Positions 5,266 to 51,837 of a stretch of DNA of 64,000 bases are shown here, one piece after another (position 1 is the stretch's first letter; every line of letters starts with the position of its first letter). Origin of the DNA: a virus; IMG/VR virus record IMGVR_UViG_3300044712_000083, positions 1 to 64,000 of that record; one strand, 5' to 3'. A program made the translations under genes and the position numbers. The notes under the pieces are model-generated. The model worked only from the letters and a program-made list of their open reading frames with translations, did not search any database and was not told where the DNA came from.

Positions 5266-6128
5266 TGCGTATAGTCAAAGAGAATACCAAGATTCTTCAC
5301 ATGTATTTTGATTCTGTTGATGATTTCTTTCAACATAGTGATGCGAAATTACTACAGGAAAAAGGTGTAAGCCATTTACCTAGTAGTAATCAGCGTCACA
5401 TTAGAGAAATCGCTAGAGGAGATGATAAAAGTTGGAGATATGCAGAAGAGAAGAGCAAGGATACTTTTGAGAAGACTAGATTCGATCCTACAAAGGGTAA
5501 AACAATGTGTGCAGATGCTGTCAAGAAAACTATGGCTGATAAGAGCTATAAGAAATTGATGGCTAACGCTATGACATATCGTAGAAAGCCCAAGTTTCAG
5601 GATGTAGGATCTAGACTCTCTGTCCCACGAGCTATAGCTGGTGAGGATAAATACTTTGTTAGTCTCAAAGCTGCAAGAAAACCAACAGTGAAGATTGCAA
5701 TTAACATTTGTGGGAGTGCAAGTGTTAATGCAGCAGCGTTTGCAAGAGTGGCACAAACAGCTATTCCAACCATTTATGCGTTGGAACAAGCTGGTATCAC
5801 CACTGAAGTTTATTATTGTGCGTTTTCTACAAGAACTCACAAAGGCTATACTCACAGTCAACTATCTGTAAAAGTTAAATCAGCCCAACAACGATTCTCC
5901 TGGACATTATTTGCTCCAGTGTTTTGTGTTGGTAGTTATAGAGATAACATCTTTACAGCATGGAGTAATTGTGATATAGATACAGACAGCGGATTAGGTT
6001 GTCCAATGAATGAATCAGATATTCAAAGTAATAATAACTTTGGATATGATTCTGTGATTGGTCTTAATGCTGTAGGTCCTGTAGAGAATGTAGGTTCTAT
6101 CTTTAATAAGATAAAACTAACGAAATAA
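5265..6128 (+). CDS. VWA/CobT-like partner of the AAA+ ATPase
   Basis: TAATG-coupled to the ATPase; KIAINICGSAS MIDAS-like strand; ALEQAGITTEV. Confidence 0.6.
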   Translation: MRIVKENTKILHMYFDSVDDFFQHSDAKLLQEKGVSHLPSSNQRHIREIARGDDKSWRYAEEKSKDTFEKTRFDPTKGKTMCADAVKKTMADKSYKKLMANAMTYRRKPKFQDVGSRLSVPRAIAGEDKYFVSLKAARKPTVKIAINICGSASVNAAAFARVAQTAIPTIYALEQAGITTEVYYCAFSTRTHKGYTHSQLSVKVKSAQQRFSWTLFAPVFCVGSYRDNIFTAWSNCDIDTDSGLGCPMNESDIQSNNNFGYDSVIGLNAVGPVENVGSIFNKIKLTK

Positions 6129-6207
6129 GGTTCAAAAATGGTTAATTTAGAGCTCTTAGACTTTGTTTTTGAGCTCTTTTATTTTTTCACACTTTAAATT
6201 CTACAAA

Positions 6208-43449: not shown

Positions 43450-43528
43450 TGTTACTTTAAATGATATGCAATAGAATACTATAAATTCAGATTAACGTAT
43501 TTGATTACACCATCTCTAATTAAATTAG

Positions 43529-48759: not shown

Positions 48760-48787
48760 AAAAAAAGCAGGATATTATCTACCCTGC
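48760..48787 (-). terminator. intrinsic terminator after the lysis cassette
   Basis: GCAGG...CCTGC followed by T7 on the minus strand. Confidence 0.7.
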
Positions 48788-48906
48788 CCTCTGTATTTCT
48801 TCTTCACTGATTTATCTTTCGGTCCTGCAGACTTAGCATGTTTGCCCTTACGTCTTACACCAAAGATAATCTTCTTAGATTCTGAAGATCCTTTTGCTTT
48901 TGCCAT
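48775..48906 (-). CDS. 43-aa basic peptide, KKYRGQG type (not in ORF track)
   Basis: MAKAKGSSESKKIIFGVRRKGKHAKSAGPKDKSVKKKYRGQGR*, TAATG overlap with the lysin. Confidence 0.7.
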   Translation of the reverse strand: MAKAKGSSESKKIIFGVRRKGKHAKSAGPKDKSVKKKYRGQGR

Positions 48907-49769
48907 TATTTTAGAAGGTTATAGTATTCAATAAAATGTTTCTGTCTGTCAGCTAATCCAATAGTTCCACCGTTAACACGTTTAGTTACAGAAGTAACTG
49001 TAGCGTTATCAGCTCCTTTGTCACAAATAGCCCATAGCTTATTACTGTTAAAGAAGAATGCTGCGGAGGCTAAAGGATATTTAGTTGCTACTAAATCTGG
49101 ATCAGCTAGAATATTCTCAGGAACTGTAGCATCAAACTTAGTGTAGTTGTCTTTACCAGTTAACTGAATATATCCTCTTCCTCTAAATTTATATCCATCT
49201 CCTGAAGATTCAGGCCCATTACCCATACGACTAGCGTAAACACGGTTAGCAATTTTTTCAGGTTTACGTTCATAAGCATTTGCAAGTGCTGCAGTTGGGA
49301 AGTATTTTTTAAATATACCTAATAGTCCTTTGGCAGAATAGTTTAAGTTCTCACGAACAGCTTTCCAGTTACCACTCTCATGTCCACATTGTGACAAGAA
49401 GTGAGCAAGACGTAAGTTGTTTGTAATACCAAAACGTGCAGCTGTATCAGGAATCTGTGCAATAACTGCATCAGGTATATGTCCTTTTAATTTATCTAAT
49501 TTGAATCCAGAGTTGTTAGGGATAACTACAGGTGCTGGTGCTGGTGCAGCTTGCACAGGAGCAGGGGCTGCTTGAGGAAGAGCCTCAATACCAAGCTTAG
49601 CTAATGTAAATGGACCAGCGATACCATCAGCCTGTAAGCCATTAGCTTTTTGCCATGCAATTAAAGCAGCTTCAGTCTTAGGACCAAACTTACCAATAGC
49701 TTCTACACCAAGCTTCTCTTGTAACTTAACAACTAATGGACCTTCGTCACCTCTACGTAATGTTGCCAT
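48906..49769 (-). CDS. endolysin: PG_binding_1 + GH19 catalytic domain
   Basis: LRRGDEG..V..LQ, ADGIAGP.T; AHFLSQCGHES, ENLNYS, FRGRGYIQLTGKDNY, VNGG..GL.DR. Confidence 0.92.
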   Translation of the reverse strand: MATLRRGDEGPLVVKLQEKLGVEAIGKFGPKTEAALIAWQKANGLQADGIAGPFTLAKLGIEALPQAAPAPVQAAPAPAPVVIPNNSGFKLDKLKGHIPDAVIAQIPDTAARFGITNNLRLAHFLSQCGHESGNWKAVRENLNYSAKGLLGIFKKYFPTAALANAYERKPEKIANRVYASRMGNGPESSGDGYKFRGRGYIQLTGKDNYTKFDATVPENILADPDLVATKYPLASAAFFFNSNKLWAICDKGADNATVTSVTKRVNGGTIGLADRQKHFIEYYNLLK

Positions 49770-50001
49770 TGTATTTCTTTTTCTTAGATGGTTTCTTTTT
49801 CTTAGGAGTAACAACCACTGCTTCACCAGCAATCTTTTCTGCAACAGCTTCAGGAATTTCTACAATTGGAGCTTTCTCAGGCTCTACAATTGGTTCTAAT
49901 TTTGATTCATCCACAGCTAAGTTAGCTTTATATGCAGGAGCAATTGGAGTTTGTTCTTTCTTTCCAAAAAGTAAAGAACGTAAAAAGTTTAAAAATTTCA
50001 T
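49753..50001 (-). CDS. small lysis-cassette protein
   Basis: Amphipathic N-terminus, basic tail. Confidence 0.6.
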   Translation of the reverse strand: MKFLNFLRSLLFGKKEQTPIAPAYKANLAVDESKLEPIVEPEKAPIVEIPEAVAEKIAGEAVVVTPKKKKPSKKKKYNGNIT

Positions 50002-50618
50002 TATTTTTTTAGTTTGATTTTAAAATAAGATTGGATACCATAGGTAATCGATCCATCAACATTCACGCCAACTTTTGCACCGATTATCTGATCCTTTTTG
50101 GTTTTGTATAGAAGACCACCTTCTACACCACTGAAAGAAGACATACTTCGCATGTTAATTCCACCCCCTACATAAACCTGTCTTTGAGGTTCTGCATATT
50201 TAGTTATGGTCATTGTTTCCTTAACTATAGGAATCTTGAAGTTATCTTTGGTAGTACGTTTGCCAAGTTTGTTTTCAGACACAGTGTCTGTAACTTGAAT
50301 GTATCCGTGTGTACCAACTTTAATAGAGTCTTTATAAACACGTTTAGATGCATAGTTCTTAACCAATGCATCATATTGTTTCTTCAACCCATTGTAATTT
50401 GTATCAGGTTGATATTTTGTAACCAACACTTCGTGGTTTACAGGAATCTCATGTACAATAGGAACCTCTTTAACAATAGTTTTTTCGTGCACTTCCCATG
50501 TAGTATCGTGTACAACTAATGTATCTGGACCTTTTACACCTTCATGCTTAGAATTGTTATAGAAATATATAACTAATGTGCCAAGAATGATGATGATTGC
50601 TAATGTTAGTTTTTTCAT
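50001..50618 (-). CDS. putative spanin-like membrane protein
   Basis: N-terminal TM, DT-rich stalk, C-terminal beta-strands; inside the lysis cassette. Confidence 0.5.
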   Translation of the reverse strand: MKKLTLAIIIILGTLVIYFYNNSKHEGVKGPDTLVVHDTTWEVHEKTIVKEVPIVHEIPVNHEVLVTKYQPDTNYNGLKKQYDALVKNYASKRVYKDSIKVGTHGYIQVTDTVSENKLGKRTTKDNFKIPIVKETMTITKYAEPQRQVYVGGGINMRSMSSFSGVEGGLLYKTKKDQIIGAKVGVNVDGSITYGIQSYFKIKLKK

Positions 50619-50626
50619 AAGAGATG

Positions 50627-50932
50627 TTATCCCTCTTCGTAAGGGGCTGGTTGTTCATTCTTATCACCAGCTTCTCCTTTTGTTTTCTTTCCCATGACGT
50701 TCTCAACGCCAGAGATACCAAAACAACCAAGAACAATGATGGTTAAAGAATTAAATACGTAATCGTTAAGAACCAATTCTTTTCCATAGTATCCTGTAAC
50801 TAAATCTACAGTAACTACAATAAGCATAAACAAGAATGCGATAGCTCCAATGATGGACTTCTCATTCCAATCGTTATCATCTTTAAAAATGCTGAAGAAA
50901 GATTCTTTAGGATCTTCAATTAAATGTTTCAT
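50627..50932 (-). CDS. putative holin
   Basis: Two TM segments, upstream of the endolysin. Confidence 0.6.
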   Translation of the reverse strand: MKHLIEDPKESFFSIFKDDNDWNEKSIIGAIAFLFMLIVVTVDLVTGYYGKELVLNDYVFNSLTIIVLGCFGISGVENVMGKKTKGEAGDKNEQPAPYEEG

Positions 50933-51206
50933 ATTTTTTAGGGGTTAGGTCATTATCATTCATCACTGCAACAACCTCATGCATATTTACCTGCTTAGGT
51001 AATTTAGATGGAGGCATTGGTACTTTATACGATGTCTTATATACTTCTCTCTCTAGTCCTTCTATACGTACCACTGTACCAGCAGACACTTCAATTAACT
51101 TATCAACCTTAGTATTCAATGTATTTAATTGATAGCTAAACCAACCAAACACTCCTACAACAGCATAGGATAGAGCATTGTCTTTTAAGTCTTGAAAAGA
51201 GGCCAT
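50916..51206 (-). CDS. single-TM coiled-coil protein (holin/antiholin-like)
   Basis: TM followed by LNTKVDKL...RIEGLE coiled coil. Confidence 0.55.
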   Translation of the reverse strand: MASFQDLKDNALSYAVVGVFGWFSYQLNTLNTKVDKLIEVSAGTVVRIEGLEREVYKTSYKVPMPPSKLPKQVNMHEVVAVMNDNDLTPKKYETFN

Positions 51207-51213
51207 AGGTATA

Positions 51214-51327
51214 GAAAAACCATAGAATCCCCAGCCTTTTCAGGAGGGGATCTATGTAGTTTAACAAAAAGAGAGAATGAAAAATCTTAGGAGGATTCCG
51301 AAGAGTTGAAGTTGGTAGGAAACTTCT
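51214..51327 (-). ncRNA. candidate ~110-nt small RNA / lysis-operon leader
   Basis: Own promoter, 5' hairpin GAAGTT/AACTTC, anti-AUG tract and 3' terminator hairpin with U5; no ORF. Confidence 0.55.
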
Positions 51328-51331
51328 GTAG

Positions 51332-51363
51332 CAAATATATGTAAGCTAAATTAAATAAGCAAG
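51332..51363 (-). promoter_or_regulatory. Bacteroidota sigma-A promoter
   Basis: CTTG-N20-TATATTTG. Confidence 0.65.
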
Positions 51364-51378
51364 TAAATTATATAAAAT

Positions 51379-51807
51379 TTATGAAACTAACTTAAATAAC
51401 ACTACATAATTGTCATTGGTGGTAACGCTTTCTAAATCTGAGATAGATAGAGGAGTGTATTCAATTTCTTTCTTCTCATTTAATAATTCTGTATAGCGTT
51501 GTTGAAGTTCAATAAACTTTGGATTGATTTTAGTTTTAGCTTCATCTTCAAACATCTCAACAGTTATATTACCATCTTCTTTTTCTTCACCGTATTCTTT
51601 AATTAACTCAGTTTTTAATTTATCAAGAATTTCTTTTTCTTTTACTAATTCAGTAGCAATTTTTGATAAACGATACTTAGTTGCAAGATTAAGTTTCTCT
51701 TTGAGGAAACCTTCCACAACTCTTTGATTTGTTTGGGGATCTGTAAATCCGTTCAACTCAGCTTCTAATGTAAGAATCTCAGCTAATGATAATTCAATTT
51801 GTGCCAT
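51379..51807 (-). CDS. putative tail-fibre chaperone
   Basis: Acidic helical protein (KYRL.K...LIKEYG...ELLNE) downstream of the fibre. Confidence 0.55.
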   Translation of the reverse strand: MAQIELSLAEILTLEAELNGFTDPQTNQRVVEGFLKEKLNLATKYRLSKIATELVKEKEILDKLKTELIKEYGEEKEDGNITVEMFEDEAKTKINPKFIELQQRYTELLNEKKEIEYTPLSISDLESVTTNDNYVVLFKLVS

Positions 51808-51829
51808 TTTTATTTAGTTAGTTTATTTG

Positions 51830-51837
51830 CAAATATA
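51830..51837 (-). promoter_or_regulatory. Bacteroidota -7 promoter element
   Basis: TATATTTG upstream of 51807. Confidence 0.5.

Follow-up and report, generated by a model that had tools for sequence, protein, structure and literature searches.

A conserved promoter and hairpin-plus-U-run element in front of the lysis module of uncultured Bacteroidota phages: a candidate cis-acting leader terminator

This locus raises the question of what a short stretch without a credible gene, lying between the gene of a 142-aa protein and a set of lysis genes, does for the phage that carries it. The window (the whole stretch of 64,000 nucleotides that was analysed) comes from a complete virus record of 114,191 bp with terminal repeats, and the phage appears to be virulent and large (114 kb). 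Lysis timing in Bacteroidota phages is largely unexplained, and a conserved unit standing before a lysis module is a concrete handle that can be mutated; for crAss-like phages, a link has been drawn between long-term persistence and lysis that is delayed or gradual (PMC8375218). The initial annotation had taken the stretch for a stand-alone small RNA that would cover the start codons of host messages, and had remarked in passing that it might attenuate the holin-lysin operon. It is this side remark that fits the data best and gives the best-supported reading, as set out below. The element lies on the minus strand at 51362-51213 (all features below are on this strand unless stated otherwise) and, by sequence and fold, is composed of a host-type promoter, two small hairpins, an unpaired tract, a strong hairpin and a U-run, an anatomy which had been described correctly except that the second small hairpin was absent from the description.

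The protein encoded by the first gene of the lysis module, of 96 aa, has 82 homologues in public metagenomes, and loci for comparison were taken from metagenome, genome and viral collections. The element was found in 26 distinct related contigs, and five more instances were obtained with a covariance model built from the 26 copies, which kept 7 of the 80 loci of a looser gapped pattern in IMG/VR (5 of the 7 new; the pattern itself gave mostly chance matches), while an exact-motif scan of IMG/VR matched only in the contig of one relative, L010. The element is single-copy per genome and occurs in phages of about 112-117 kb, and it is absent from related phages of 63-66 kb. In all 31 instances it stands directly upstream of one gene family, with a distance from stem to AUG of 14-18 nt in the 26 that were measured, even though the downstream protein is only 31-95% identical across the carriers. 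Because the gene upstream of the element differs among the relatives, with at least four unrelated C-termini, the element is linked to the downstream gene, and the description as a stand-alone RNA does not hold in this respect. In Rfam there was no match at the gathering threshold (the best E-value in the region, 0.59, was on the opposite strand), and in GenBank phages no match was found either by DNA or by the 96-aa protein; the phage DNA polymerase matched GenBank phages at less than 60% identity, with 33% as the best among the matches listed. Three contigs of metagenome-assembled genomes labelled Sediminibacterium and Bacteroidia provide hints of the host, although one of them, of 112 kb, is probably the phage itself. 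The carriers can be described as uncultured freshwater Bacteroidota phages. A promoter-proximal terminator before late or lysis genes is a known kind of system, whereas the RNA motif itself is not in Rfam or GenBank phages, and the element is set apart by its Bacteroidota type of promoter, by a single copy tied to the lysis module and by an invariant 10-mer.

The promoter (51332..51370) is of the Bacteroidota sigma-A type, for which the pattern is TTG-N19-21-TAnnTTTG. It consists of an A/T-rich upstream box, a -33 TTG (51362-51360), a spacer of 20 nt and a -7 box TATATTTG (51339-51332), and transcription is predicted to start at about 51326 (+/- 3). The form TTG-N17-21-[T/G]AnnTTTG is kept in 26 of 26 relatives, with a consensus of A-C-A-(T/G)-A-T-(A/C)-TTTG after the TTG and spacer and with TTAATTAA upstream of the promoter in most of them. 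When the full promoter pattern was sought over the 114-kb genome, the late (minus) strand had intergenic sites only at 77565, 51362 and 43471, all with the extended form TTG(C/T)ATAT...ATATATTTG; the leaders of the promoters at 43471 and 77565 are short and plain, unlike that at 51362. In the crAss-like phage phi14:2, host RNA polymerase transcribes the middle and late genes from promoters with an extended motif (bioRxiv 10.1101/2020.03.07.982082). From its sequence, we infer that the promoter of the element is a strong one of the phage middle/late class that would be used by host RNA polymerase. In 10 of the 26 relatives, including L010 (3640-3668), L016, L017, L021, L022, L025 and L033-L035, the spacer between the -33 and -7 boxes contains a perfect 9-bp inverted repeat, ATATGTAAT-N4-ATTACATAT, the 4-nt centre of which varies. 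The repeat looks like the operator of a putative dimeric DNA-binding protein, and in the window phage it is degenerate (51359-51332, about 6 of 9 positions). A further promoter-like site outside the window near the genome end, at 112862-112815 on the same strand, is directly followed by two G8 runs (TTTGGGGGGGGAAGGGGGGGGCTATAAT).

A stretch of 141 nt at this locus folds at -31.4 kcal/mol (z = -3.2). The first predicted hairpin, P1 (51308..51326), has the form GAAGUU-loop-AACUUC, and in the relatives of group A its GAAG/CUUC pairs are kept while one pair covaries from U-A to C-G (4 versus 6 sequences). The second, P2 (51285..51304), is UCUUCGGA-AUCC-UCCUAAGA with one mismatch; it was not recovered by the consensus fold, and by inspection the same region in L010 and L034 forms a hairpin of different sequence. 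This 5' part is variable, with two hairpins in group A and different hairpins or an insertion in other groups, and both P1 and P2 are absent in the minimal relatives L028, L029 and L032, in which the leader has only about 95 nt; P1 and P2 are dispensable. Then follows a G-poor, U/C-rich tract, UUUUUCAUUCUCUCUUUUUGUUAAACUA (51257..51284), which includes the stretch UUUUUCAU named in the initial annotation and is unpaired in both the MFE and the centroid folds. Its composition over the 26 sequences is 6% G, 55% U, 19% C and 20% A, and it is near-identical within group A and different in sequence in the other groups. Two ORFs alone overlap the element, one a TTG frame of 43 aa and the other an antisense frame of 32 aa; both are implausible, in agreement with the earlier statement that no ORF is present, and no conserved ATG frame for a leader peptide was seen by inspection of the leaders. 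A structural antiterminator made of the P2 box and the 3' arm of the terminator was tried by hand pairing and rejected, as the 9 bp possible in the window shrink to 5 bp in the L010 group; with L028, L029 and L032 lacking the 5' domain altogether, no alternative antiterminator pairing is conserved.

The strong hairpin (51221..51256) has a two-tier stem of about -20 kcal/mol (z = -3.8 when folded alone) and is directly followed by the U-run GUUUUUCU (51213..51220). It was missed by an E. coli-style terminator scan with a loop limit of 8 nt, and it ranked second among the hairpin-plus-U-run sites of the complete 114-kb genome in a custom scan. Among the 26 relatives, the consensus stem has 12 pairs, of which 5 show compensatory double changes, with 21 double-change cells in total. 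The percentage of cells that can pair was 95.2% in comparison to 36-52% in slid controls, and the covariation score was 0.363 in comparison to 0.236 in shuffles, none of 500 shuffles being as high. The stem energy of the diverged relatives is about -19 to -20.5 kcal/mol, and the 8 nt after the stem contain 5-7 U in 26 of 26 relatives, with a mean of 6. The results showed that the element is well beyond chance, as judged from the 26 relatives and their pairing against slid controls, and the stem and U-run have the sequence features of an intrinsic (Rho-independent) terminator. The strongest hairpin of the genome, at 99803-99750 outside the window (-24 kcal/mol, with a U-run), lies some 25 nt past the stop codon of the gene before it and 13 nt ahead of an ATG, and the layout of hairpin, U-run and ATG recurs in the genome at 99765 and 48766, at gene ends. 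Leaky terminators may be a general means of setting expression levels in these phages. It was also noted that GUUUAACCUAUG precedes the 99803-99750 hairpin and loosely resembles the GUUAAACUACAUAG box of the lysis element.

At the junction between the unpaired tract and the stem lies the 10-mer AACUACAUAG (51252..51261), which runs from the end of the tract into the 5' foot of the terminator stem. It is identical in all 26 aligned relatives and is the sole stretch identical in all, occurring once per locus at the element; the five further instances were found by a pattern requiring it and are therefore not independent support for its invariance. There is a single exact copy in the window, and copies with one mismatch are at chance level (12 in comparison to 8.8 expected). 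Since the 3' partner in the stem varies (CUAUG, CUAUU, CUGUG), the constraint is on the sequence and not on pairing alone. An IHF-like site (WATCAANNNNTTR) spanning the 10-mer was considered and rejected for lack of fit. A second CTACATAG copy in L028, L030 and L032, about 1.3 kb upstream of the element and without its features, was treated as chance.

These features bear first on the proposal of a trans-acting small RNA, by which the RNA of about 110 nt would be functional in its own right and would pair through the U/C-rich tract and AACUACAUAG with host or phage mRNAs, the covering of host AUGs being a special case. In its favour, a promoter and a terminator, both conserved, belong to the element, which lacks a credible ORF; its layout of a variable 5' part, a conserved unpaired stretch and a terminator hairpin is typical of such RNAs, and within group A the tract is near-unchanged while the surrounding hairpins change by compensation, with AACUACAUAG as an invariant part of it. 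There is also a precedent in the Shiga-toxin phages, studied in E. coli, whose short PR'-tR' transcript, StxS, acts as a regulatory sRNA (PMC7547250). Like StxS, the RNA predicted here would be a by-product of termination at a late promoter with a possible role in trans, and the cis and trans readings are not exclusive of each other; different from StxS, the seed proposed here is not conserved and the RNA is a predicted one. StxS is reportedly Hfq-dependent.

The seed is not conserved, which counts against this proposal. The UUUUCAU seed had been claimed as an anti-AUG element, with its lack of conservation in homologous regions set beforehand as the refuting outcome, and TTTTCAT turned out to be present in no more than 3 of the 26 homologous elements, and TTCAT in 13. 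The shorter CAU was present in 16 of 26, at positions that shift, in comparison to an expectation of 12.5 for shuffled tracts (P = 0.12). The complement of the 10-mer, CUAUGUAGUU, contains an AUG followed by an in-frame UAG and does not read as a start region. When 127 phage start regions were considered as targets, the best pairing was -19.9 kcal/mol in comparison to a shuffle mean of -20.1 kcal/mol, and 25 of 60 shuffles were as good. In addition, the tract sequence differs outside group A, and the element always has the same gene next to it while the upstream neighbours vary. Nothing supports host start codons as targets, and we consider a trans-acting role in general unlikely. The base-pairing sRNAs of Bacteroides, such as GibS, are chromosomal stand-alone genes with mapped targets; the element resembles them in the Bacteroidota promoter and in a short structured RNA with an unpaired stretch before the terminator, and differs in being fixed in the leader of one phage gene.

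The gene to which the element is fixed (50916..51206) encodes the 96-aa protein (MASFQD...), which has a weakly hydrophobic N-terminal segment and a start, M1-A-S-F-Q, that is conserved in the 82 homologues, and for which no Pfam or PHROG family was found. Its ATG at 51206 is 6 nt past GUUUUUCU and 14 nt past the stem (15 from the last aligned pair); the operon does adjoin the element as had been stated, but the gap is not exactly the 8 nt given for it. The rest of the module (48775..50932) was assigned from ORFs, hydropathy and domain matches, and it contains a 101-aa protein with two hydrophobic segments by hydropathy (holin-like), a 205-aa protein with an N-terminal anchor and, next in the module, an 82-aa ORF. 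The endolysin is listed at 48906-49844, with a probable start at ATG 49772, and matches phrog_181 at 2.9e-64 and the domains PG_binding_1 and Glyco_hydro_19. The same gene order was found in L010. A second terminator-like hairpin with U7 (48761..48791, -12.7 kcal/mol), identified by the genome-wide scan and by sequence, closes the module, which on sequence criteria is bracketed in the order promoter, terminator, six ORFs, terminator. A very basic 43-aa ORF (MAKAKGSSESKK...KKKYRGQGR) was noted after the endolysin, in the window at 48775-48906 and in L010 at 6044-6175, with the terminator at its end, and in Bacteroides phage crAss001 a similar lysine-rich mini-ORF (MAKTCKSGGKMPPKGGKKPTKK; L180, 26878-26946) occupies the same place after the lysis genes.

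Our preferred reading, to which we give a slightly better than even chance, is that the element is a cis-acting leader with an intrinsic terminator, that is, an attenuator or an antitermination gate on the lysis module, and most likely it limits or times the transcription of the lysis genes. The points in its favour are the covariation of the stem, the U-run, the fixed spacing, the one gene family downstream and the closing terminator. Host RNA polymerase would start at the element promoter, transcribe about 110 nt and meet the hairpin and U-run before the first lysis gene; this would be the end of most transcripts from this promoter and of those that come in from the virion genes upstream, and a short non-coding RNA of about 110 nt would be the terminated product. 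Expression of the 96-aa gene, the holin-like gene and the endolysin would then be left solely to the polymerases that read through, which would continue to the second terminator. No -7 box ([T/G]AnnTTTG) was found inside the leader in any of the 26 relatives, and the 14-18 nt between stem and AUG leave, by inspection, no room for a promoter. Because there is no recognisable promoter box in the leader or between terminator and gene, the module is predicted to depend on read-through. Under one option, the read-through would be a fixed small fraction and the element a simple attenuator that keeps the lysis proteins low relative to the virion proteins; under the other, read-through would be raised late in infection by a factor whose recognition site would be AACUACAUAG at the foot of the stem. 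Termination in vivo, gene expression by read-through and the regulation of this read-through are what we infer from these features. A plain attenuator would be an ordinary though neat setting of expression levels, and it leaves unexplained both the invariance of AACUACAUAG and the placing of a strong promoter just before a strong terminator.

A function in translation or in the stability of the mRNA would agree as well with the tight distance between stem and AUG. According to this alternative, the element would be a 5'-UTR element acting after transcription, with little termination in vivo, and the hairpin would be a 5' stabiliser, a processing signal or a translation element; as a translation element it would stand at the 5' edge of the ribosome footprint of a Bacteroidota start lacking a Shine-Dalgarno sequence. 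Under this alternative, AACUACAUAG would be an RNase or protein site. The constant stem-to-AUG distance, a conserved UAYAC-like box between the U-run and the AUG, and the invariant sequence at the junction between single strand and stem are consistent with this view, and the RNA data lend it a weak point as well. These data consist of contigs only, from two runs in which 6-9% of the sampled words were present, and most of the leader is without coverage. One contig of 151 nt from a freshwater metatranscriptome run, belonging to an L014-like relative, covers the gene start (71 nt) together with the 80 nt before it, across the terminator hairpin; read-through RNA would account for it, and so would DNA. 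It counts as a weak point for the cis-acting leader too. On the other side, a G+C-rich stem abutted by 5-7 U in 8 nt is the canonical signature of a terminator, and a post-transcriptional role would leave the U-run without explanation. Moreover, on inspection, three plain leaders of this phage (those of the ATGs that follow 51837, 43471 and 21456) proved to be rich in A and not in U, and at the gene ends 99765 and 48766, where the same layout is found, termination is the natural role. We regard a purely post-transcriptional element as improbable.

The related phages of 63-66 kb (L001-L009, L040-L051) allow a comparison with loci in which the element is missing. They share the 142-aa gene and have distant homologues of the 96-aa gene, and in the place of the element they carry an ORF of about 45 aa with a transmembrane segment (C-terminus ITYKKILR) and what looks, by inspection, like a plain TAnnTTTG promoter, some 20 nt ahead of the 96-aa homologue. 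A GGGGCGA...TCGCC hairpin before this promoter was considered as a terminator and set aside, as it lies inside the small, seemingly conserved ORF of the transmembrane protein. The comparison suggests an exchange of lysis-module genes among phage groups that each keep a control region of their own. In the window, the 142-aa gene (51379..51837, with the ORF at 51379-51807; phrog_1401, function not assigned) is the upstream neighbour and lies outside the element. With a TATATTTG box of its own (51837-51830) and an A-rich leader of 22 nt, it may form a small independent transcription unit, finishing at the terminator of the element.

The element could also be read as an insulator only, with the terminator ending the upstream virion transcription, the promoter being incidental or leaky, and neither regulation nor a function of the RNA involved. 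Such insulation would be in line with the terminators found directly before start codons at 99765 and 48766 and before the lysis genes of crAss001. However, the order of promoter and terminator, the promoter sequence and the 10-mer are kept while the proteins diverge to about 31% identity, and the related phages of 63-66 kb show the opposite solution, an apparently plain promoter beside the gene. Insulation as the only function thus appears very unlikely to us. The order of promoter, terminator and gene is kept over deep divergence in the carriers, in contrast to the apparently plain promoter of the 63-66-kb phages; with regard to the preferred cis-acting leader, these relatives, which do without the element, count among the points against a plain attenuator. 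In crAss001 (MH675552), the lysis genes gp27-gp30 are preceded, at a distance of about 30 nt, by a hairpin of -19 kcal/mol with U5, which agrees with the preferred reading. The two phages are alike in having a terminator before the first gene of the lysis module and a small basic ORF and a terminator after it; they differ in that crAss001 has no sequence similarity to the element, no visible promoter upstream of the terminator and no AACUACAUAG box, and its terminator is analogous rather than homologous.

The closest known arrangement is that of the lambdoid phages, in which the unit PR'-6S-tR' precedes the lysis genes S-R-Rz and the terminator is read through by Q. Both have a strong promoter followed by an intrinsic terminator within about 100-200 nt, with the lysis genes first behind it, and in both the short terminated RNA is the default product, as predicted for the element. 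The key differences are that no Q-family gene was found in the phage genome, that no repeat of the promoter box which could serve a sigma-dependent pause was found in the 26 leaders, that the promoter is of the Bacteroidota TTG/TAnnTTTG type, and that the cassette heads only a module of about 2.5 kb closed by a second terminator and not a whole late operon. In comparison to the QBE of lambda, there is the 9-bp inverted repeat in the promoter spacer of some relatives, which by analogy hints at a DNA-binding regulator at the position where Q binds in lambda. The phage was also searched for NusG, Sigma70_r2, Sigma70_r4_2, Phage_antitermQ, Antiterm and Phage_AlpA, and none was found; for Phage_antitermQ and Antiterm, a six-frame search of the complete genome gave no match at E <= 1.

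A second comparison is with the nut and put sites (boxA/boxB of lambda with N, and put of HK022), which resemble the element in having a short invariant linear box beside a covarying hairpin in a promoter-proximal leader. Here, however, the hairpin is itself the terminator, the part that would correspond to put (the two 5' hairpins) is dispensable, and no N-like gene is identifiable. The resemblance to boxA is weak. It is conceivable, though we think it doubtful, that AACUACAUAG and the terminator form the recognition site of an undescribed antitermination system, in which the lysis module would be turned on late by a phage protein that belongs to no known family, or else by a host factor that has been hijacked. 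If this were true, it would be a Q- or N-like lysis timer operating on the non-canonical transcription machinery of Bacteroidota, and the terminated RNA, abundant in this case, might have a second role as a regulator, like StxS. Any dependence of the read-through on a factor would in itself indicate antitermination on the unusual RNA polymerase and sigma-A of Bacteroidota.

Elsewhere in the window, a tRNA match was observed on the plus strand at 660-754, with 95 nt for a model of 71 positions and a score of 48.8 bits; it is long for a tRNA and may have a long variable arm or an insertion.
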